A stretch of 64,000 bases of DNA from the NCBI GenBank assembly GCA_963714015.1, contig OY970223.1, forward strand, positions 2,688,001-2,752,000, in the 5' to 3' direction. Position numbers and translations under genes: made by a program. This document shows positions 4,197 through 12,979 of this stretch, one piece after another (position 1 is the first letter of the stretch; each line of letters begins with the position of its first letter). Origin of the DNA: Vulcanimicrobiota bacterium. GTDB taxonomy: Bacteria; Vulcanimicrobiota; Vulcanimicrobiia; Vulcanimicrobiales; Vulcanimicrobiaceae. The notes below the pieces were generated by a model. It was not told the origin of the DNA. It did not search any database and saw only the letters and a program-made list of their open reading frames with translations.

Positions 4197-4576
4197 GCGG
4201 ACACCCGGCACTCTTCGCACGTCGGCGGACATTTCGCGCGCACAATGACGCACGACCGGCAAATCCACTTCTCAGGACCGATGACGACGTACGTGCCGTC
4301 ATCCTGCGGCCAAAGCCCAAGATTCGCGCCGTCGTAGCCAACCGGCTTCGCACAATCGGCGCACGGCTTCTGCGCGACCGCGACGCAGAACGGGCAGTAG
4401 GCGTTCTCTTTTGAACACGGAGCGCAGAGCAGCGAGTCCGTGCAGCCGGCGCAATTCGTTGCCGCCGTACCGTTGGCGTCCTCGTAGCCGCCGATGCTCA
4501 AGCCGTGATCCCCACCACCGCCTACGGCGAATAATTCCGACTTGCAGTCGGCGCAGACCGATGAATAGCCAGCCAT
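4193..4576 (-). CDS. Cys-rich, putative zinc-binding phage protein
   Basis: Multiple CxxC motifs in 127 aa. Confidence 0.6.
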   Translation of the reverse strand: MAGYSSVCADCKSELFAVGGGGDHGLSIGGYEDANGTAATNCAGCTDSLLCAPCSKENAYCPFCVAVAQKPCADCAKPVGYDGANLGLWPQDDGTYVVIGPEKWICRSCVIVRAKCPPTCEECRVSA

Positions 4577-4578
4577 GA

Positions 4579-4860
4579 TCAGGCGACTTCCGGTCTGAAG
4601 GACGTGAAAGTGCCGTCAGCGTTTCGCACGTATGGCCAGCCGTAGACGACGGCTTCATAGGGCCCGCCGGTCTGCGGCGGCTCGGACGCGACTTCCATCG
4701 CGACGTCATGCAGGTTCGCAGCGGCGTCAAGAACGCCGAGCAGGTTCCCATTGGGATTCGGTGTAGACTGGTGTTGCATCGTACGCTCCTTTACAGCGGT
4801 GATGCGAAGCGGCGTAGCGTTGACAGACGTTGCGCCGTTCTGATTTTGAAAGGTGATCAT
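4579..4860 (-). CDS. Phage hypothetical protein
   Basis: ORF in tightly packed early operon. Confidence 0.5.
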   Translation of the reverse strand: MITFQNQNGATSVNATPLRITAVKERTMQHQSTPNPNGNLLGVLDAAANLHDVAMEVASEPPQTGGPYEAVVYGWPYVRNADGTFTSFRPEVA

Positions 4861-4985
4861 GCCGCGTCGGACTCGCGCCGGCGCCGTTCGTTATTCAGGT
4901 CCGCGCGCTCGAGTGCGTACAGGACGGAGACCGCTTCAGTGCTGTCATCCAGCACGATCGGAGCCGGCGTAACCGCGTCGTTCAT
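4857..4985 (-). CDS. Small phage hypothetical protein (42 aa)
   Basis: MNDAVTPAPIVLDD...; ATGA overlaps at both ends. Confidence 0.45.
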   Translation of the reverse strand: MNDAVTPAPIVLDDSTEAVSVLYALERADLNNERRRRESDAA

Positions 4986-5224
4986 GCCGCCTCACGGCGA
5001 ATGATGCTCTTGATTGCATCGTCCGCAAGCGCGCGGCGGGCGCGCTGAAGGCGAACCGTCGCGCGTTCAACGGCTTGGCTCGCCAAGTAGAATTCTTCGA
5101 TGATCGATTCGCTGAGCGGAATCTGTCGATCGTCCAAGCGTGCCTTGCGGCCAGCGCCCAGGCGCGCACCGCCGCGTTTTGATTTCGCAGGCGAGCAGGC
5201 GGACTGTGATACGCTGGTTGCCAT
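4982..5224 (-). CDS. Phage hypothetical protein with basic RGGARxGAGRK motif
   Basis: ORF directly after the cro-like gene. Confidence 0.55.
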   Translation of the reverse strand: MATSVSQSACSPAKSKRGGARLGAGRKARLDDRQIPLSESIIEEFYLASQAVERATVRLQRARRALADDAIKSIIRREAA

Positions 5225-5226
5225 GA

Positions 5227-5427
5227 CTAGGCCACTGCCCCCAACGTAAGGCTACGAAAGCGCTCGGATGCTTTCTGCAGTGTTATTACCGCGTCGCCCG
5301 GCATACGGCTCGCACCATCTTGCCAGCGCTTTACGGTGTTTGCGGAGCGGCCGGTGAGGACCGCCACGTACTCGTCCGACCAGCCTTCGTGCTGTTGGGT
5401 CTGGGCGAGCGCGTCTTTCAGTTCCAT
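5227..5427 (-). CDS. Cro-like HTH protein
   Basis: 66 aa, VAVLTGRSANTVKRW helix-turn-helix; divergent from the repressor. Confidence 0.7.
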   Translation of the reverse strand: MELKDALAQTQQHEGWSDEYVAVLTGRSANTVKRWQDGASRMPGDAVITLQKASERFRSLTLGAVA

Positions 5428-5436
5428 CGTAAGGCT

Positions 5437-5486
5437 ATGTTACAGAAATGTTCACCCTTTTGTCAACACTAATGTAAACATTTCTG
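5437..5486. promoter_or_regulatory. Lysis/lysogeny switch: leftward sigma70 promoter and inverted operator pair
   Basis: Minus-strand TTGACA (5461-5466)-18 bp-TAACAT (5437-5442); inverted repeats CAGAAATGTTCAC (5443-5455) and GTAAACATTTCTG (5474-5486), one mismatch. Confidence 0.7.
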
Positions 5487-5498
5487 GGGTAGCCTGAA

Positions 5499-5846
5499 GT
5501 GGTGACAGAGACGTTTTCAGAGCGCCTCGCTCGGTTATGTCAAGAGGCCGGAGTCAGTAAAACCGAACTTGCCACGATTTTGGAGGTCAGCGAAAACCAA
5601 GCAAGACGCATCCTTGATGGAACCACCCAAAGCCTGAAGCTGCTGCCTGCTTGGCGGCTCTCAAAACGCCTGGGGATCACCCTCTCCGCACTAGTCGGCG
5701 AATCTCCCGAGGACGCTACGCGATCCATCGACCGGGACGCGCTGATCGCGTTGGGGGGCATGAATCTTGTTCAGGCGCTGCGAGAGTTGCAATCTCGCGT
5801 TGAATCTCTTGAAGAACGGAGCCGCAAGACTGACCTAAAAGCGTGA
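5499..5846 (+). CDS. CI-like XRE-family repressor
   Basis: FSERLARL...SKTELATILEVSENQARRI HTH; no obvious S24 peptidase domain. Confidence 0.8.
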   Translation: MVTETFSERLARLCQEAGVSKTELATILEVSENQARRILDGTTQSLKLLPAWRLSKRLGITLSALVGESPEDATRSIDRDALIALGGMNLVQALRELQSRVESLEERSRKTDLKA

Positions 5847-5910
5847 ACGCAAACTCTGCCACATCGAGGCGGTCGGTCATCTTCTTTACGTTCCTTACCG
5901 GAGGGTGTCC

Positions 5911-6663
5911 ATGGGAGCATTTCTTGAATTCGTTGGTTGCGTTTGCATCTGCTGGACCATTTTCGCGAGTAGTGCGCGTCCAGAACGGCTACGATTCGTC
6001 GTCGGTTTCGTCGGCGCGTTGCTCGCCGCAATGGGCCTCGGCTTAGACCCACCAAACGCCGCAGTCTGGCTCATTCTTTTCGGAGTGCTCTTCGCCGGCC
6101 TGGGCATTGCGAAAAAGGGATATCGCGCCGCCGGAATAGGTAGTGGGCTCGTGTTGCTGGTTATCGGCGCAAGCTTCATGCCGGGCACGTCGAGATCGCA
6201 GCGCACTGCCGTGGCCGCAGCGCCGTCACCCGCTCCGGTACATGCATTCAAAGCAGCGCCAACACCTCGCCCAACGCGCTCGCCCAAACCGACGCCTCCT
6301 CCTCCGCCGCCGACGCCAACGCCAAATCCGATATTACAAGAGAAGCACGACTTCATCGCAAGCGTCGACGAATCGATCTCAGGCCCGATGATCGAAGGTA
6401 ATCCGTACAAGTACGTTGGCGATAACGTCGACCTGCGCTGCACGGTAGAGAATATTCCAGATCCGTCGATGTTCAATGCTGCGTGCGGCCAGGACGACGA
6501 CGGCACCGACGCGATCATCGTTGTGCAATATGACGACACGTCCAGCTTGGACAAAGGGCAGTCGGTGCGCGTGCTCGGAACCGTCGTAACTCCGATGCAA
6601 GGAACAAACGCCATGGGCGGGTCGATGAACTTCCCGACCGTCGAAGCGCATTTTATGGAATAA
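5911..6663 (+). CDS. Membrane protein with Pro-rich linker and extracellular OB-fold-like domain
   Basis: About four N-terminal TM segments, PTPRPTRSPKPTPPPPPP linker, NPYKYVGDNV...GQSVRVLGTV. Confidence 0.7.
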   Translation: MGAFLEFVGCVCICWTIFASSARPERLRFVVGFVGALLAAMGLGLDPPNAAVWLILFGVLFAGLGIAKKGYRAAGIGSGLVLLVIGASFMPGTSRSQRTAVAAAPSPAPVHAFKAAPTPRPTRSPKPTPPPPPPTPTPNPILQEKHDFIASVDESISGPMIEGNPYKYVGDNVDLRCTVENIPDPSMFNAACGQDDDGTDAIIVVQYDDTSSLDKGQSVRVLGTVVTPMQGTNAMGGSMNFPTVEAHFME

Positions 6664-6675
6664 CGCGCTCCATAG

Positions 6676-6701
6676 CAAAAAGCGCCTCCAACGGATGCGC
6701 G
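6676..6701 (-). terminator. Putative intrinsic terminator for a leftward transcript
   Basis: Minus strand GCGCATCC-GTT-GGAGGCGC followed by TTTTT. Confidence 0.45.
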
Positions 6702-6793
6702 AGCTCGTTCCCTCATTATGGCGATTATCGGCTAGCCAATCCGCTAGCGCAAGAGTACTTTTTGGATCACCTTATCCACAGCCGCAATGCATC

Positions 6794-6809
6794 TGGGTAC
6801 TTTTGTACC
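6794..6809. promoter_or_regulatory. Palindromic box TGGGTACTTTTGTACC, copy 1
   Basis: Exact 16-bp repeat of 8654-8669; GGTAC-N4-GTACC dyad. Confidence 0.65.
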
Positions 6810-6875
6810 GCACTCTGTCACCGCTTCGTTTGTATCTGTCACCGTTTCACGGTATCGGCGCAGACCGTAAGATCG

Positions 6876-8406
6876 TCAATCGTAACTTTCGTCACCGTAG
6901 TTAACTAGAAGATCGCGCGTCGTCTTGGCGCCGAGACTTCCGCAAAACCGTGACCGTTCGATTGCGCACCGTATTCTCGCTGATATTGAGGTCCGCGGCG
7001 ATCGCCGCCCGGTTCTTGCCCTTGAGAATCATCACGAAGATTTCGCGTTCGCGTTCGGAGAGCGTCTGCAAACGCGGATCGGAGAGCCGTTCCTGATGAC
7101 GGTCGACGAGCCGGCGGAACCAGATATGGGGGAAATTCGCGTCGATCGTCTTGGCCGCGTACTCGAGCAGGCCGTCTTTGTGCTCCATTTCGCCGAGGTG
7201 AATCGCGGCCAGCGATGCCCGCCACAAGAACCCGATCGATCTCCAGGTGCGCCAGGCCGATTCGATATGCTGCGTTGCGGCGCTACGGTCTCCGTTCGAG
7301 CGCTCGACAACGCCGCTCGTGTAATCAATCAGTGCACGGATGCGCAGGTCCGGACGCGAGAAGGCGAGCAGCGGATATGCGGACGTCTTGATCTCGGCGT
7401 ACTTGTCCAAGAAGAACTTCGATCTCGTTGGATTCTTCGGCGCCGTCAACTCCGCCGCGAGTAAGAGCGCAGCTCGTTCATCACCGATGACCGTATCCCA
7501 ATCAATGGGCGCAAGGAGCGCTTCGGCTTCACGCAAGCAATGCTCGGAGAACGCCGCTTCGTTCAGCCCCGCGGCCAAATATGCGCGGTCAAGGAACGTT
7601 AGCGCACGTAACGCCGGCTTCGGCGCAACGGAAGCCGACTTCGAAAAGAAGTCATACGCCGTTGGTCCCTGCCCGGCAGTCGCGTAAAACCACGCGATAT
7701 TGCGTAGCGTCTGACACTGCTGCGCCGCAACGGAGGGAACCCATGGGACGTGCGCCGCTTTCGCCTCGACGTAGCAAGCCAGATCCGCACTGTCGAGCTC
7801 GCGCGCGAGCGCAGAAAGCGTTTGCACGCACCACGCCGCCATCCATACGTCGTACGCTGGTTCGCGAAAGAGCAAATCGATTGCGTCACGCAGATGAGCG
7901 ATCTGCTTGGTGAAATGCCCGCGCACCCCGGCGAGTCCAGCCAGCAACTCGAAACGTCGCGCCGGTTCAAATTCTACGACGGCAGGCTCGTTGAGCAGTT
8001 GCTCTGCGTCCGAATAATTGCCGAGCACCCAATGCGTGAGTGCTTCTTGATAGCACGCCTCGCCAAGAGCCGCACGATCGTCGAATTGCATCGCGTACCG
8101 GCGTGCCGCAGTGTGAACGAGCAGACCGTCTTTCGTCATATCCGAGCGGCACATTGCTGCGCCTAGCAGTGCAAGCGGGCGCGGTTTTTGCTCGAGCGGC
8201 AGATCGTTTACGAAAAAATAAAACCCCGACTGCAGCAGATCGACGTGCTTCCCAAGGCGCATGAAAATGCGCGCTCGCAGCATGCGCGCTTCAAGGCGCG
8301 AATCGTCGTGCGTAGCGGTAAGGCATTCATCGAATCGGGCTTGCTGGAACAAACGGCTTGCGTCGTCCGCCGAGTACCCGACCTTGGCGTTAGTCGTCGG
8401 TAACAT
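6876..8406 (-). CDS. TPR-like alpha-helical regulator with C-terminal LuxR-type HTH (candidate peptide receptor)
   Basis: LSEREREIFVMILKGKNRAAIAADLNISENTVRNR LuxR motif after ~430 aa of helical repeats. As given the ORF stops at 6901; a 1-bp correction gives ...KLGAKTTRDLL...YD* ending at 6876. Confidence 0.8.
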
Positions 8407-8407
8407 A

Positions 8408-8455
8408 GAAAAGATGGGGCACGATCTGTAGTATAGACCGTGCCCCCGCTCTTTT
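8408..8455 (-). terminator. Terminator-like hairpin between peptide and regulator genes
   Basis: Minus strand GGGGCACGGTCTATA-C-TACAGATCGTGCCCC followed by ATCTTTTCT and then the regulator ATG. Confidence 0.5.
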
Positions 8456-8477
8456 GAGAAATCAATCCGTAAATCTT

Positions 8478-8622
8478 TTAGCCGCCGCCGATTCCGCCCC
8501 CATTGTCAGCCGGCGGAGGTGTCGGTTGCGACGTGGCGTTGATCGTCACGTTCGCTGATGGCGGTTGAATCGGTGACAGAGCAAAAGACTAAACTGAGCA
8601 GCACGCCAAGAATGTAGATCAC
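8478..8622 (-). CDS. Small secreted peptide precursor (candidate signalling pro-peptide)
   Basis: AAGGAG RBS, GTG at 8622, hydrophobic MIYILGVLLSLVF. As given, 38 aa (stop at 8506); deleting one base of the A4 run at 8583-8586 gives 47 aa ending ...TSQPTPPPADNGGGIGGG*. Confidence 0.65.
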
Positions 8623-8653
8623 CGTAGGCTCCTTTGCAGACAAAAGTCGCTAG

Positions 8654-8669
8654 TGGGTACTTTTGTACC
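8654..8669. promoter_or_regulatory. Palindromic box TGGGTACTTTTGTACC, copy 2
   Basis: Lies between the divergent peptide and integrase starts; identical to 6794-6809. Confidence 0.65.
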
Positions 8670-8734
8670 TAGCACGTTGCTTCGCGGCGCATGTGTCAGT
8701 GCCCTGAGATCGTCGGACGATCTTTACGCAAGCG

Positions 8735-10317
8735 GTGACAGAGCGGACGGAGGTCCCGCGCAACGCGTGGAAGGGCACTGCCCCAATCGTGAAGTTGAAA
8801 AAGAGCGGCCAACTGCAAGGTCACGCGGCATGGGCCTATTTGGTCGTCAGCTCCGAGCAGCAAGCCGATACGCTCGACGATCAGCAGGCGTGGGCAGATC
8901 GCACCGCGCGCGCGCACGGCTGGGAGATCACGCGCTGGTTCAAGGACACGTCGACCGGCAAATCCGGCGCGCGCAAGCTGCTCGATGATCTCGTCGAAGC
9001 ACTGCGCGCCATGAAACCCGCCGAACGCCCAGCACGCGTGCTGATGACGCGCCTCGATCGCCTCGGGCGCGGCGATGGCCTCGAGCCCATCGAATACTTT
9101 GCGAAGATCCGTACGCTCGGCCCGGTAATTCATACCAGGGAAGACGGCGACAACGCGATCCATCGCGCGAGCGATGCGCTCAAGCCGATCCTGCGCGTCC
9201 TTACCGGTGCGCTCGAAAACGAAGCGCGTCGCGATAAGATGATCGAGAAGTGGCGGAACTGGAAAGCCGGCGGCCGCAAAGGTCTGCTCCGGCCCTACGG
9301 TATCGCTACTGACGAGCATGGCCATGACGTTGCCCTCGAGCCCCAAGCGGAGTTCGTCAGGAAGGCGTTTCAGCTGCGCGTCCAAGGGCTCGGGCACGTG
9401 GCGATAGGCAACTACCTACGCGAACACGCGCCGCCGATGATCTACAAAAACCCGCGCAAGAAACTCTCCGAGCATCGCATGCGCTGGACGCGCGGGAGCG
9501 TTCCGCAGATGCTGCGCAACGAAGCCTACCGGGGCGTTGTCGTCGACGAGGCGCTCTGGGATGAAGTGCAATTCGTACAGCGGTGGGTTCCGCCCAAAAA
9601 GACGGTCAAGTGGGAATGGCCGCTCTCCGGAACGCTCCGGTGTTACTGCGGGTACAGCATGACCGGTCAAGCCTCCGGTGGCAGCTGCAACCGCTGCAAA
9701 GGGCGCGACCATCGGCATGAGCGCGTTCGCTATTATGTCTGCTCTGAGCGTACGCACGTCGGCGTCGAGCCAACGCGTTCGAATCAAGGACCGCCAACCT
9801 CAAGTAAACCGCATTCGCGTTTCGTGCGGGCCGATTTACTCGAAGAGAAGTTCGCCGATCTGTTGAAGCAGATGGCCGGCTCCCGCAGCTCGTCGCACGA
9901 TTCGCGTCCGAGAAACGGTTGTCAGCGCGATCGCGACAAGCGCTCGAGGACCGTGTGCGCAAATTGGGCGACGTCGTCGCCGGCGCCGAACTACGCCGCG
10001 AACGCGTTTGGGCACTACACGAAAAGGGACACGTGCGGGACGAGGATCTACAGCAACGCCTCGACGCGATCTCCGTGGAAACCGGTGCGGCTAAGCAGGA
10101 ACTTACGCGGCTACGGGCCGAGATCGCGCAGCAGGAACGCATCGGCGGTGCCGCCCGGAGCGCCCTCGAAATGCTTCGGCGCGCGGCGCAGATTTGGGCC
10201 GATGCGGACGTTGAGGACAGGCAATTCATTGCAACCGCAGTCGCTCGATATTGCGGCGGATTGACGGTAACGGCGGATGGAACGCTGCAACCGGGACGCC
10301 TCGTCCAGACCGCTTAA
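8735..10317 (+). CDS. Large serine recombinase (phage integrase), frameshifted near 9880
   Basis: Resolvase domain (AYLVVSSEQQ, STG, TRLDRLGR), recombinase domain (PYG, LRNEAYRG), Zn ribbon (LSGTLRCYCG...YYVC), coiled-coil C-terminus in ORF 9919-10317. Confidence 0.9.
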
Positions 10318-10332
10318 AAGCGAACAAGAGTT

Positions 10333-10348
10333 CGTTCCACGTGAAACG
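10333..10348. promoter_or_regulatory. parS-like palindrome CGTTCCACGTGAAACG
   Basis: One mismatch to the GTTTCACGTGAAAC parS core. Confidence 0.5.
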
Positions 10349-10501
10349 GTGACAGAGTGTGGTCTCCTCCGAATTGCCGCCAGCGTACTTGACTTTGAAA
10401 ACATGCGCGAGATCAATACGCTTCGCGACGTTCAGATGGCGCAGCGTAAAGCAGACAACTCCATTACGAAGAAATTCATCCAGTCGATCGCGGAAGACTA
10501 A
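10349..10501 (+). pseudogene. 3' remnant of a small host gene probably interrupted by the prophage (possible phage-supplied GTG at 10349)
   Basis: MREINTLRDVQMAQRKADNSITKKFIQSI aligns by eye with the C-terminus of the downstream 99-aa ORF but has no matching N-terminus. Confidence 0.55.
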
Positions 10502-10800
10502 TGCGCGCGGAGAGTGTTTCATCGAGCCGGCCGGGTGTGGGAAAAACGAGCGCCGGCAAGACCGCGGCTTCCAAGGCGCCGGACGCGGACGCAGCGTCCG
10601 CGCTAACCGACGGGATGGATCGCGAGCAGGCTAAGGAAGTCCGCCTCGAGCTGCTTCTGCAGCGCCAGCGCGACCGCTTCGACTTTCAGACCGAGGAGCG
10701 CACGGAACTCGAACGCGAGTACAATACGATGCGAGATATGATGCTCGCGCAGGAGAAAAACGACGACGAGATCGTCAAGAAGTACGTCGCGATGATTTAG
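10501..10800 (+). CDS. Hypothetical coiled-coil protein
   Basis: 99-aa ORF, TAATG overlap with the upstream remnant. Confidence 0.7.
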   Translation: MRAESVSSSRPGVGKTSAGKTAASKAPDADAASALTDGMDREQAKEVRLELLLQRQRDRFDFQTEERTELEREYNTMRDMMLAQEKNDDEIVKKYVAMI

Positions 10801-10883
10801 CCCGCGGCCGCTTCTCAAGAGGGAGGCCGGGGCTTGCGCCCCGTGGTAGAATCGGTTCTGCGGGCAGCCCCCGCGCCCGCGCC

Positions 10884-10960
10884 GGGCCATTAGCTCAGTT
10901 GGTTAGAGCGCATGCTTGATAAGCATGAGGTCCCAAGTTCGAGCCTTGGATGGCCCACCA
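10884..10960 (+). tRNA. tRNA-Ile(GAT)
   Basis: Cloverleaf, anticodon arm CATGC-TTGATAA-GCATG, encoded CCA. Confidence 0.97.
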
Positions 10961-11103
10961 GTTCCAAAGCCCCGCAGCGCTGCGGGGCTTCGCATTTCGC
11001 GCGAGCTTCCAAACGCGGCGGCGTATCGATTGACGCTCGCCCCGGGACCCGGTAAACTACCCCGCGCTGGGACATTTGGCCTATAGCCACGAATGATAAT
11101 ACG

Positions 11104-11325
11104 ATGGCGAAAGATCGGATTACGGCAAGGGGAGAGCCCGACCCGAACAAATGCTACCGCAGTGTCTGCTGCAATACCGTAAATTTTACCGCGGCAAAGC
11201 GCCGCGATGCGGCCGTCGTGAAAGGCTTTTGCAGCGTCGAATGCGCCTGGTGGTGCGGCTTCATCGTCACCCCCGAAGTGCGAGAGCGCTTGCTGGACAA
11301 AGCCAAAGTCGCAGTTAAAAAGTAA
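11104..11325 (+). CDS. Small Cys-containing hypothetical protein
   Basis: 73 aa, C..CC and FCSVEC motifs. Confidence 0.6.
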   Translation: MAKDRITARGEPDPNKCYRSVCCNTVNFTAAKRRDAAVVKGFCSVECAWWCGFIVTPEVRERLLDKAKVAVKK

Positions 11326-11326
11326 G

Positions 11327-11806
11327 CTAACTCTTCTCGGATTGCGCGAGCAGCGGCGCTATCAATTCTGCGACGCGCTCGAGCACGTTGCGATCGCGGT
11401 CACCGAACGCATTGAGCCGATCGCTCTCTGCGTCGATCGTGCCTACGACTTGGCCGCCGCTGTGCGCTAAGACGATCATTTCCGATCGCGTGTCTCCAAA
11501 CGCCGTCAAGTAGTTCGGATCGTTTTTCACATCGCCGGCGACGACCGTCTTTTCTTGGCGAAGCGCTTCGCCGGTAAGACCGCGATCGCGCGAGAATACG
11601 GGGTGCGCCGGCGGATGCGGTCCGCTAAAGACGAGCATGCGAACTTGAGCCGGCGTGACCTCGTAGATTCCCACCCAGCGGTAGTTGCCTGCGGCATGGA
11701 TATCCGCGGCTAGTGCACGTAGCCGCTCCCGGCGAGAACCGTTGTCTGCGACGATTTCCCGAACGTGAGCTTCGAGCGTAGAAAGGTCGATGAAATGCTT
11801 GGTCAT
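11327..11806 (-). CDS. GAF-domain protein (fRMsr/YebR-like)
   Basis: WVGIY, DVKNDPNYL, TRSEMIV, GTIDAES. Confidence 0.8.
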   Translation of the reverse strand: MTKHFIDLSTLEAHVREIVADNGSRRERLRALAADIHAAGNYRWVGIYEVTPAQVRMLVFSGPHPPAHPVFSRDRGLTGEALRQEKTVVAGDVKNDPNYLTAFGDTRSEMIVLAHSGGQVVGTIDAESDRLNAFGDRDRNVLERVAELIAPLLAQSEKS

Positions 11807-11873
11807 GGGATAAATCTTCGCCAAGGCAGAAGGTCGGGCACTGCTGCGGCGCCGAACGGGCGGCGGTCGATTC

Positions 11874-11946
11874 GGGGATGTAGCTCAGCTGGTAGAGCGC
11901 CTGCTTTGCAAGCAGGATGTCAGGGGTTCGAGTCCCCTCATCTCCA
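11874..11946 (+). tRNA. tRNA-Ala(TGC)
   Basis: GGGGATG acceptor, anticodon loop TTTGCAA. Confidence 0.97.
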
Positions 11947-11991
11947 CAGGTCTGAAGCGGCCCGCGTGGAATGAACGCGGGTCCTTTCGCA

Positions 11992-12064
11992 GGGGGCATA
12001 GCTCAGTTGGTAGAGCATTACGCTGGCAGCGTAAGGGTCAGGAGTTCGAGTCTCCTTGCCTCCA
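11992..12064 (+). tRNA. tRNA-Ala(GGC)
   Basis: Cloverleaf, anticodon loop CTGGCAG. Confidence 0.95.
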
Positions 12065-12139
12065 CAAAATTCCAAGGGAAATCCCTCGGTCTATACCGGG
12101 GGATTGTTCGTTCGAGCGCACACTCGATTTAGGCCGGCG

Positions 12140-12979
12140 CTATTCGCGCTTTGCTGCGAGCTCGGCGGTTCTCACCGCGCGCGCAGCGACATCCGAGACC
12201 CCGAGCTTCTCACAGAGCGACGCAAATTCGGCCGTTGGACCGTGCCACCGCAATTCGTCGACGCCGTCAAAGAGTCTCGCATCGGTTCGAAGCGTCGCCA
12301 AGTTCTTGAAGAGTAAGGCCAGCGCGCGGCTTTCGCCGAGCACCTCCGGCGGGAAATCCTCGATTTTGCCGTACCGCGTAAGCAGTGACGACGCGCCTTT
12401 TGCTCCGATGCCCTTGATGCCGGGATATCCGTCGGAAGCATCGCCGACGAGGGCCAAATAATCCGGTATGAGTTGGGGATCGACTCCGAATTTCGAGCGT
12501 ACGCCGGCCGCATCGCGAACGGCGTTGCTTCGTCGATCCACTTGCACGATGCGATCCCGGCAAACGCACTGCGAAAGATCTTTATCCGGCGTCCAGATGC
12601 AAATTTTTTCAACGCGAGCATCGTTCGCTGCGATCTGCGCGGCTGACGCGAGCGCATCGTCGGCCTCGAGGTCGACCATCGCCCAGACCGCGATGCCCAT
12701 CGCTCCCAAGGCAACCTCGAGCGGCTCGAATTGCGCCAGGAGTGCCGGCTCGACGCCCGCGCCCGTCTTGTATCCGTCCCAAAGCCCGTTGCGAAAAGAT
12801 TCGATGACGTGATCGGTAGCGACGCCGACGTGCGTGGCGCCCTCGGAAATCATCTGCAAGACGGTATTGAGCACCCCGGCCACGGCGCCGAACCGGGCGC
12901 CTTTACGGCTCCCGGCGCGGCTCAGGCCGTAAAAGTGGCGGAACAGCTCGTACGTTCCGTCGATTAGGTGCACGATCAT
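12140..12979 (-). CDS. 5'-3' exonuclease / flap endonuclease
   Basis: LIDG, EADD, DKDL, LVGDASDGYPGIKGIG (H3TH). Confidence 0.9.
   Translation of the reverse strand: MIVHLIDGTYELFRHFYGLSRAGSRKGARFGAVAGVLNTVLQMISEGATHVGVATDHVIESFRNGLWDGYKTGAGVEPALLAQFEPLEVALGAMGIAVWAMVDLEADDALASAAQIAANDARVEKICIWTPDKDLSQCVCRDRIVQVDRRSNAVRDAAGVRSKFGVDPQLIPDYLALVGDASDGYPGIKGIGAKGASSLLTRYGKIEDFPPEVLGESRALALLFKNLATLRTDARLFDGVDELRWHGPTAEFASLCEKLGVSDVAARAVRTAELAAKRE

Follow-up and report, generated by a model that had tools for sequence, protein, structure and literature searches.

The locus analysed here pairs a tiny open reading frame (ORF) with the gene of a helical-repeat regulator that ends in a LuxR-type helix-turn-helix (HTH) domain. 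It lies in a stretch of 64,000 nucleotides (nt) of contig OY970223.1 (positions 2,688,001 to 2,752,000), called the window below, from an uncultured soil bacterium of the Eremiobacterota/Vulcanimicrobiota that resembles Candidatus Baltobacteraceae (genome G000 in our numbering; one 3.56-Mb contig with a completeness of 89.6 %). A preliminary description, made from the letters of the window alone, had proposed an arbitrium-like peptide communication module in the immunity region of a prophage whose host is probably not a member of the Bacillota. The assignment of the host outside the Bacillota holds. The small ORF with its AAGGAG ribosome-binding site (RBS) and its hydrophobic start was found as described, and the module indeed stands between a cI-like repressor gene and the gene of a large serine integrase (Table 1). 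The small ORF runs in the same direction as the regulator gene, called the receptor gene here, and is located 71 bases upstream of it.

As assembled, the small ORF starts with a hydrophobic segment in frame A (translation from GTG 8622: MIYILGVLLSLVFCSV..., MIYILGVLLSLVFCSVTD...), and the Pro-rich end (...PPPADNGGGIGGG, ...SQPTPPPADNGGGIGGG) is encoded in frame B, one base out of register. The two frames can be joined by the removal of one base only within the interval 8583-8590, because a TAG at 8591-8589 closes frame B. The preliminary description had placed this correction in a homopolymer; the interval does hold the T4 run, and it also holds an AGTCT. In the corrected frame, the residues (V/A)-F-A/LSP behind the hydrophobic start form a plausible type-I cleavage site, a call that uses hydrophobicity and an AxA/VxA-like site only. 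The corrected peptide contains no lipobox, and the ...LVFC of the as-assembled reading presumably does not comply with the lipobox rule. Frame B would represent a putative pro-region together with a C-terminal signal motif, and the terminator-like hairpin between the small ORF and the receptor gene is a possible attenuator that could set the ratio of peptide to receptor.

Table 1. Coordinates of the features at the module and around it (positions refer to the window unless a G000 contig position is given).
Feature	Position	Strand	Details
Small ORF, frame A (as assembled)	8506..8622	-	GTG start, hydrophobic N-terminus MIYILGVLLSLVF..., stop TGA 8508-8506
Small ORF, frame B	8478..8588	-	...ALSPIQPPSANVTINATSQPTPPPADNGGGIGGG; open 8588-8481, stop TAA 8480-8478
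RBS AAGGAG	8629..8634	-	6-nt spacer to GTG 8622
Frame A/B junction interval	8583..8590	-	AGTCT 8590-8586 overlapping T4 run 8586-8583
Terminator-like hairpin	8416..8446	-	12 pairs, 8 of them G-C, then ATCTTTTCT; between small ORF and receptor ATG
Receptor	6901..8406	-	501 amino acids (aa) as assembled; tetratricopeptide repeat (TPR) superhelix ~10-445, LuxR/GerE HTH 447-490
Likely true receptor 3' end	6876..6938	-	other frame, ...LGAKTTRDLLVNYGDESYD, stop TGA 6878-6876; break at AGTCT 6938-6934
Box 1, candidate receptor operator	8654..8669	.	TGGGTACTTTTGTACC, GGTAC-N4-GTACC palindrome
Box 2	6794..6809	.	second, identical 16-bp box; the likely stop of the receptor gene lies ~68 nt before it
Second box, GAAnCGGTGACAGAG-type, asymmetric, six copies	5496-5510, 6813-6827 (rc), 6834-6848 (rc), 8567-8581, 8729-8743, 10343-10357		rc, reverse complement
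cI-like HTH repressor candidate	5499..5846	+	divergent from cro-like HTH gene
cro-like HTH gene	5227..5427	-	
252-aa ORF	5905..6663	+	after cI-like gene
Antisense ORF	5895..6716	-	overlaps 252-aa ORF
Large serine recombinase (integrase)	8735..10317	+	divergent from peptide-receptor operon
tRNA-Ile	10884..10960	+	just past prophage right end
DUF4382 lipoproteins before family regulators	G000 C1:3,422,244-3,423,227 and 3,424,967-3,425,980	-	also at locus L025

In the receptor, Pfam assigns residues 447-490 to GerE (E 1.6e-9), where overlapping models of sigma-70 region 4 also match, and residues 342-421 to TPR_MalT with a value below the cut-off (E 1.2e-4). Pfam gave no match to an autoinducer-binding domain, the N-terminus being a TPR superhelix. 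No match to a nucleoside triphosphatase (NTPase; STAND/NOD) was obtained, and the helical repeats start at about residue 13 of the 501 aa. NCBIfam gave no match at E<=1e-10, and no RRNPP or AimR sequence match was obtained in Pfam, NCBIfam or the PDB. An AlphaFold2 model built from a 30-sequence alignment is all-helical (predicted local distance difference test, pLDDT, 90.6; predicted template-modelling score, pTM, 0.85), with about 26 helices up to residue 447 and the HTH thereafter. The profile of the receptor family matches consensus TPR proteins (E 8.6e-17, positions 17-179) as well as the DNA-binding domains of GerE, NarL and LuxR (E 4e-16 and weaker, positions 447-506), and no solved protein was matched across both parts. 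Pfam, model and profile agree on a TPR sensor at the N-terminus and a LuxR/GerE HTH at the C-terminus, and the claimed reversal of the domain order relative to RRNPP receptors is therefore borne out.

A word-indexed search returned a single close relative of the receptor, P0002 (52 % identity, 507 aa), and its locus had no match in searches of viral, genome or metagenome contigs. In an exhaustive profile-free search, the number of clusters was 660 at E<=1e-3, 409 at E<=1e-10 and 71 at E<=1e-30; the majority are proteins of about 500 aa that match over the full length at 25-35 % identity. The window's genome carries further receptor copies at four other places, two of them in pieces. Receptor matches occurred in 21 of 41 relatives including G000 (family f1, 17/24; sister family f2, 3/5; family f3, 0/11). 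With the family profile at E<=1e-20, 174 of 301 genomes of the phylum, again including G000, were positive (f1, 171/206; f2, 1/3; f3, 1/22; none in the other 18 families), with up to five or more matches in one genome. Six genomes that are marked as unpublished (G021, G023, G193, G223, G254, G282) are counted in both surveys, and none of the specific claims depends on them. The receptor family is thus multi-copy, and nearly all of its matches fall into one family of the Eremiobacterota. In G006, three family regulators stand in tandem (C1:1,632,722-1,636,969), the first of them preceded by a precursor with at least five NAGPLGGSGIG units. Clusters of similar architecture from Actinomycetota in the ESM Atlas were considered as kin. 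In five actinomycete genomes the family profile matches the HTH part only (positions ~430-507), and since these matches are confined to the HTH, the Atlas clusters are not counted as relatives.

The genes in front of these regulators carry the main evidence. In the genus g34, a co-oriented precursor gene lies 20-180 nt upstream of the regulator in 28 of 29 further loci (L118-L146, the exception being L143), which are orthologs and not independent of each other. These precursors comprise 83-245 aa and share one layout, consisting of a lipoprotein-type signal (MRK...LLGGC/AGGG...), a conserved ...GGS-LP stretch and then a short motif that is repeated 3 to about 18 times, with spacers between the copies that are either His/basic or Pro-rich. 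The variants of the motif are DSVGGGPVP/K, DSVGGGPPL, DSVGGGLPK/R, DSTGGGIIL, ELMGGGPAP, LEVIGGPVA and SVGGSIPS. Over the first 36 codons, 130 pairs of these precursors differ 1042, 814 and 2279 times at codon positions 1, 2 and 3, respectively, and because the differences concentrate in this way, the frame is coding. The motif stays constant while spacers and copy number drift, also within a single precursor (e.g. L121, L124); selection thus acts on the short motif. At four of these loci (L120, L130, L134, L146), the gene after the regulator starts with ...FLFSDIEGSTRRW...GYVFKTIGDAF, which may represent a class III nucleotidyl cyclase domain.

Other members of the family have precursors with motifs of their own: DSMGGIPVG (L017), DSGGVMTGD (L029) and DTLGGGPVF (L012) are each found three times, NAGPLGGSGIG (L016) five times or more, and DNGGSVPG (L015), DNGGMPLC (L027) and DSGGSMPG (L002, a paralog in the window's own genome) represent further forms. 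In the sister family f2, the precursors at L021-L023 are lipoproteins with repeated ...PPY motifs. Across the receptor family, the motif is of the type D-x-x-G-G-x-(P/I/G), with 1 to about 18 copies per precursor, and in genome G094 each of four paralogs has a different one. A lipobox cysteine (...LLGGC, ...LQAC or ...LAAC) is present in precursors of g34, g37 and others, and a few family regulators follow short His-rich ORFs that end in ...STGGSISG. At 40 places in other genera (L147-L186), inspection by eye recognised a precursor ORF in 24 cases and a motif without a clear start in one.

For a count by rule, an ORF had to contain a hydrophobic stretch within its first 45 residues and, behind it, the pattern [DEN]-x(1,2)-GG-x(0,3)-[PGIM]; the reverse strand of the same DNA served as control. 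This crude rule, which was defined after the data had been seen, was matched by co-oriented ORFs in 8 of 25 cases among relatives and paralogs (reverse strand, 0/25), in 23 of 29 in g34 (2/29) and in 19 of 40 in other genera (4/40), i.e. in 50 of 94 overall compared to 6 of 94 on the reverse strand. Pairing of precursor and regulator is therefore frequent and diverse, and not universal. For the claims of the preliminary description, this means that the pairing of a small secreted-type ORF with a TPR-LuxR regulator is a conserved cassette of the host lineage and not a case of chance neighbours, and that the Gly-rich C-terminal motif is a conserved part of the precursors across relatives. The preliminary description had named as a check whether each receptor homolog has a neighbouring peptide ORF; such an ORF is found frequently (28/29 in g34, 24/40 in other genera) but not in all of them.

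The window peptide falls into a subclass of short precursors that have no lipobox and end in their only motif, which is preceded by a Pro-rich spacer. The members closest to frame B are the peptides at L148 (...VAATPPPSGDNTGGIGI, aligned end ...TPPPSGDNTGGIGI, 50 % identity) and L147 (...VMPTPPPSGDTGGGPSGK, aligned end ...TPPPSGDTGGGPSGK, 45 %), followed by those at L149 (...APTPPPSSDTSGGPM) and L171 (...IVQPADSIGGISGG), both with 35 % identity. In a neighbour-joining tree of 42 regulators, computed without support values, the window receptor and P0002 join L217, the regulator beside the L147 peptide and at 33 % identity the nearest chromosomal relative of the window receptor; L218, the partner of L148, is placed nearby. 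The peptide that belongs to this nearest chromosomal relative ends in ...PPPSGDTGGGPSGK. The agreement of tree and alignment is good evidence for frame B as the real reading. It is not evidence of co-evolution, because relatedness alone would yield the same agreement. A tRNA-Val gene is the immediate neighbour of the nearest chromosomal relative of the window module (L237:16500-18430, G094 C18). This relative is chromosomal, and neither an integrase nor any phage gene was found within ~15 kb.

Frame breaks are not limited to the small ORF. The assembled receptor tail ...VLRK/SRRQDDARSSS diverges from P0002, and in the neighbouring frame the last 20 residues (...LGAKTTRDLLVNYGDESYD) match ...KSTRDLLVKFASVAT of this homolog. 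The integrase changes frame after ...ADLLKQMAG, near 9870-9885. Elsewhere in the assembly, the frames of rpoB (G000 C1:2,035,484-2,038,733) and rpoC (G000 C1:2,063,474-2,066,972) split near 2,037,990 and 2,065,650, respectively, and several genes for peptide-binding proteins (SBP) are in pieces. Since rpoB and rpoC are broken, receptor tail and integrase likewise, and relatives possess intact ORFs of the same design, the one-base correction of the small ORF has indirect support and is very probably correct; the tiny ORF itself is real. Three breaks within 3.5 kb could also point to a decaying, non-functional copy in which small ORF, receptor 3' end and integrase are truly broken, and no related prophage was found among 211 genomes of the family. 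We consider this improbable: essential genes are affected in the same assembly, and apart from the breaks all three genes are of full length, with starts, RBS and domains intact. Indel errors in the assembly are the simpler cause, because essential genes are broken too and the completeness is only 89.6 % for a single contig.

The breaks of rpoB and rpoC, like those of the small ORF and the receptor tail, each read as a single surplus base within AG^CT, which gives AGTCT or AGACT. Such a pattern could stem from a systematic error of base calling at AGCT, a site that may be methylated, and the prophage encodes several DNA methyltransferases. Genome-wide, AGTCT and AGACT are only ~5 % above expectation, and a delete-and-reopen test gave 3.4-4.2 % at these words compared to 1.8-3.5 % in control words. 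With such weakly positive tests, systematic insertion at AGCT as the cause of the breaks is suggestive and not established. Two overlapping same-strand ORF pairs in the chromosomal part of the window gave no sign of a frameshift.

Candidate regulatory DNA frames the module. The whole 3.56-Mb genome contains only two copies of a 16-bp palindromic box, both of them in the window, where they flank the peptide-receptor module: box 1 is upstream of the peptide ORF as well as of the divergent integrase gene, at 32 nt from the former start and 65 nt from the latter, and box 2 lies behind the receptor gene. The region 6794-6848 contains box 2 and two boxes of the second type, with no conserved ORF or Rfam RNA in it. 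Relatives show comparable elements. Upstream of the L021-L023 precursors, palindromes of the same design (TGGCAC-N2-4-GTGCCA) precede a TATGAT-like hexamer, and many loci have palindromes of their own that lie 40-110 nt before the precursor start; the arms measure 11 nt at L002 and 12 nt at L171. The best perfect palindrome arm in 36 loci has a mean length of 6.36 nt compared to 4.84 nt in shuffles and reaches at least 7 nt in 13 of them. In g34, each of 28 loci examined has a nearly invariant 22-nt element, GGTACTAGTATATTCGTACTAC, ~65 nt before the precursor ATG, although its flanks vary; it contains the palindrome TACTAGTA and a TATATT hexamer, and a GC-rich hairpin, likewise conserved, and a GAAAGG RBS come after it. 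These elements fit autoregulated operons with subfamily-specific operators. A dependence of the operator type on the HTH recognition helix was tried as a link and was not seen.

Copies of the asymmetric second box lie over the GTG start codons of both the cI-like gene and the integrase gene. Its core, GGTGACAGAG, is found only seven times without mismatch in the 3.56 Mb. Five of these sites fall within the 4.9-kb immunity and integration region, where a sixth copy has one mismatch; the other two exact sites are located at the left end of the prophage (G000 C1:2,627,024 and 2,627,259). This box may represent the operator set of the repressor or a marker of leaderless starts.

The prophage itself is real and spans ~71 kb, roughly G000 C1:2,627,000-2,698,400, a length that follows from host genes (SRP54) resuming at ~2.620 Mb. 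To the left of the module it encodes Sak4-like, primosomal, RusA and HNH endonuclease proteins besides the methyltransferases, and its structural genes include a large terminase (E 3.2e-27), a major head protein, a tape measure protein and baseplate J. Over 4500-12200, Rfam found tRNAs only. The 252-aa ORF behind the cI-like gene shows hydrophobic N-terminal segments and a Pro-rich linker, has no match in Pfam or PHROG, and is overlapped by a long antisense ORF; its last ~320 nt match DNA of G232, G006, G016 and G111 at 65-68 % identity. Compared by DNA with the 211 family genomes, the prophage gave only short matches of 65-68 % (the integrase start and the 3' part of the 252-aa gene), and the g34 alignment found no relative among viral contigs. 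The family of cassettes is large and previously undescribed, and the window holds the sole phage-borne copy found.

To compare the receptor with known sensors, we aligned the model to structures. Foldseek against the PDB returned generic TPR proteins only. VIA-align against 48,161 chains ranked domain III of MalT first (1hz4, Z 22.3; 325 residues aligned, model 100-447, root-mean-square deviation 4.4), followed among the peptide receptors by RapI (4i1a, Z 18.3), Rap of phage phi105 with bound peptide (8rte, Z 17.5), AimR (5xyb, Z 16.7; 5zvv, Z 15.9), NprR with NprX (4gpk, Z 15.3) and RapH (3q15, Z 14.8), with eukaryotic TPR scaffolds interleaved among the matches. Helical repeats obtain high scores easily, so that the order of the matches tells more than the Z values themselves. 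By its model, the receptor looks like the sensor-plus-effector half of MalT/LAL regulators without the NTPase, and its sensor belongs to the same structural class as the peptide-binding RRNPP receptors. The inducer of MalT is a sugar, maltotriose. A co-fold of the L017 regulator (residues 1-440, as alignment) with its 39-residue pro-region scored 0.01 without controls, which is evidence neither way.

We regard it as highly probable that the cassette exists and that the module in the window belongs to it. The view that this module is the prophage copy of a Baltobacteraceae-specific, independently evolved peptide-receptor cassette, and a functional analogue of arbitrium, is somewhat favoured, and we likewise lean towards the peptide being the signal of the receptor. 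That the phage copy governs lysogeny is a more tentative proposal.

Several points weigh against this interpretation. Secretion, processing, import and binding are inferred, and the reading of the window peptide depends on a one-base correction; read from the GTG, its N-terminus lacks a basic n-region. Among the 40 places in other genera, 15 have no recognisable precursor within ~550 nt upstream, and the motif rule was set up post hoc. Some paralogs follow, instead of a small precursor, a lipoprotein of 320-360 aa with DUF4382 and CarboxypepD_reg domains. These proteins carry a Gly-Gly motif right behind the lipobox, e.g. GVYGGIGP in the window's genome or DTLGGIP, and may be a tethered form of the signal. 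TPR folds reach high Z values with many unrelated repeat proteins, and the similarity of boxes between subfamilies does not follow the HTH recognition helix. A second phage-borne cassette was found neither among viral contigs nor in the 211 family genomes, the context of P0002 being unread, and no aimX-like output gene was identified.

The same evidence has to be weighed for a plain pair of regulator and target, in which the TPR-LuxR protein senses a metabolite or a partner protein and controls the adjacent gene. The Gly-rich product could then be a component of the envelope or a lipoprotein, and in the phage a factor of lysogenic conversion or exclusion. The best fold match, MalT domain III, is indeed a small-molecule sensor, many precursors are lipoproteins that would remain anchored in the membrane, some paralogs follow the full-size DUF4382/CarboxypepD_reg lipoproteins, palindromes upstream of precursor genes fit simple cis-regulation, and the binding of the peptide is a prediction. 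On the other hand, the motif is kept within a precursor although its spacers and its copy number change, which is typical of precursors of polypeptide signals and not of structural repeats. Paralogs in the same genome carry different motifs (four in G094), and Rap, AimR and NprR, all of which bind peptides, are also fold matches of the sensor (Z 15-18). In addition, single-copy precursors end in the motif, with a Pro-rich spacer before it, an arrangement shared with the propeptides Phr and AimP (PMC10075063, PMC11343458). On balance, we hold a mere regulator-target pair to be unlikely and give preference to a peptide that signals to the receptor.

The small genes might also be precursors of ribosomally synthesized and post-translationally modified peptides (RiPPs) or bacteriocins with repeated cores, and the TPR-LuxR protein their pathway regulator. 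Some RiPPs are indeed made from precursors with several cores, gene clusters of actinomycetes often include LuxR-type pathway regulators that contain TPRs, and the Atlas lists proteins of similar architecture in Actinomycetota. This origin is very improbable, as the precursors bear Sec or lipoprotein signal peptides, and no gene for a modifying enzyme or an exporter was found in the window or in the 1.5-kb flanks of the inspected loci. The prophage pair, moreover, has no other partner gene between cI and int.

How far does the peptide-receptor cassette resemble systems that are already known? RRNPP(A) systems are described from Bacillota and their mobile elements, with propeptides of 50-120 aa that contain 1-4 copies of the pheromone and with receptors that act via their N-terminal portion (PMC10075063, PMC9765709, PMC11343458). 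Like Rap-Phr, NprR-NprX, PlcR-PapR, Rgg-SHP and PrgX, the cassette joins an adjacent gene for a small Sec-exported propeptide to a cytoplasmic TPR-type receptor. The usual position of the signal at the propeptide C-terminus, the many paralogous pairs per genome and the copies on mobile elements are further likenesses (PMC10075063, PMC11343458), and the fold of the receptor matches RapI, RapH, Rap of phi105 and NprR (Z 14.8-18.3). In contrast, no sequence relationship to RRNPP(A) receptors was detected, the HTH is of the LuxR/GerE type and C-terminal instead of an N-terminal XRE-type HTH or 3-helix effector domain, the host belongs to the Eremiobacterota and is probably diderm, and many precursors are lipoproteins with up to ~18 motif copies rather than 1-4. 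The tandem Phr propeptides of phage Rap systems (phi3T, phi105) also contain several putative pheromone copies, which are freed by extracellular proteolysis (PMC11343458). There, the copies number 1-4 and Rap has no DNA-binding domain, whereas the cassette combines up to ~18 copies, a lipoprotein signal and His-rich or basic spacers with a LuxR-HTH receptor.

With arbitrium (AimR-AimP-AimX of Bacillus phages), the module shares a phage-borne pair of peptide and receptor in the lysogeny region beside the integrase, a candidate signal that is a short C-terminal peptide after a signal sequence, and a receptor fold that matches AimR. Unlike in arbitrium, the receptor is no AimR homolog (its fold match, Z 16.7 at best, ranks below MalT domain III with Z 22.3), the peptide gene precedes the receptor gene, the domain order is reversed and an aimX-like output was not identified. 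The arbitrium-like reading of the preliminary description is therefore retained in part: architecture and prophage location agree with it, and the sequence of the receptor does not. Because the receptor is not kin to AimR or RRNPP by sequence, the term denotes a likely way of working and not membership.

The MalT/LAL regulators of the STAND class share with the receptor the sensor superhelix directly in front of a LuxR-type HTH, the best structural match and the weak TPR_MalT hit. They differ by an N-terminal NTPase (NOD) and arm domains, which are absent here as the protein starts with TPRs, and from MalT also by the partner gene, which encodes a peptide precursor in the cassette. A LuxR-HTH receptor carried by a prophage also has a parallel in phage LuxR/LuxI-type acyl-homoserine-lactone receptors, which have been tied to lysis-lysogeny decisions (10.64898/2026.07.02.736140, PMC10432266). 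Those receptors have an autoinducer-binding domain, while the module has a TPR sensor and a peptide gene instead of a synthase.

The following working model would account for the cassette. Gene 1 would encode a small exported precursor with a type-I-like or lipoprotein signal, a Pro-rich or His-rich and basic spacer and one to many motifs, and gene 2 a cytoplasmic regulator in which a TPR sensor resembling MalT domain III is fused to a LuxR/GerE HTH at the C-terminus. The precursor would be exported by Sec, lipoprotein forms being cut by LspA, and proteases would free the Gly-rich peptide, in the phage version the C-terminal ...DNGGGIGGG. The peptide would accumulate with the number of producing cells, infected or lysogenic, be re-imported by an Opp-type permease and bind to the concave face of the TPR sensor. 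The host encodes LspA and has 15 matches to SBP_bac_5, the family of Opp/Dpp-type peptide-binding proteins. It also has a homolog of Omp85/BamA and therefore probably an outer membrane; in our control set, the Omp85 family occurred only in organisms that we take to be diderm.

Binding of the peptide would then alter the hold of the receptor on the 16-bp GGTAC-N4-GTACC boxes and feed back on the operon. From box 1, between the peptide operon and the divergent int, and from box 2, behind the receptor gene and facing the cI operon, integration or the maintenance of lysogeny could be coupled to the density of related phages via the int side, the cI side or both. The effect on DNA binding could be activation as well as inhibition; among RRNPPA receptors both occur (PMC11343458). 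The idea can be tested in vitro and in Escherichia coli without culture of the host, because both genes are short and the candidate operator comprises 16 bp.

In the openly accessible literature that we searched, judged by listings and the openings of abstracts, we found no account of this cassette. As far as these sources go, peptide signals read by TPR proteins are treated as a hallmark of Bacillota and their phages, and arbitrium-type communication is known from Bacillus phages. RRNPP_Detector discarded clusters with an N-terminal TPR region, in a survey framed on Gram-positive Firmicutes (PMC10075063). If true, our reading would reveal a blind spot of current RRNPP detectors, which drop receptors with N-terminal TPRs. 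It would also mean polyprotein pheromone precursors in bacteria at a scale so far tied to eukaryotic pheromones and neuropeptides, and a convergent assembly of peptide signalling from a MalT/LuxR scaffold. We put forward with some reserve that peptide communication arose independently in the probably diderm Eremiobacterota, and that a phage captured a single-copy version beside its integrase and uses it to set lysogeny by the density of its kin. Communication by peptides would then extend to another phylum and probably to a diderm envelope, with an analogue of arbitrium outside the Bacillota.

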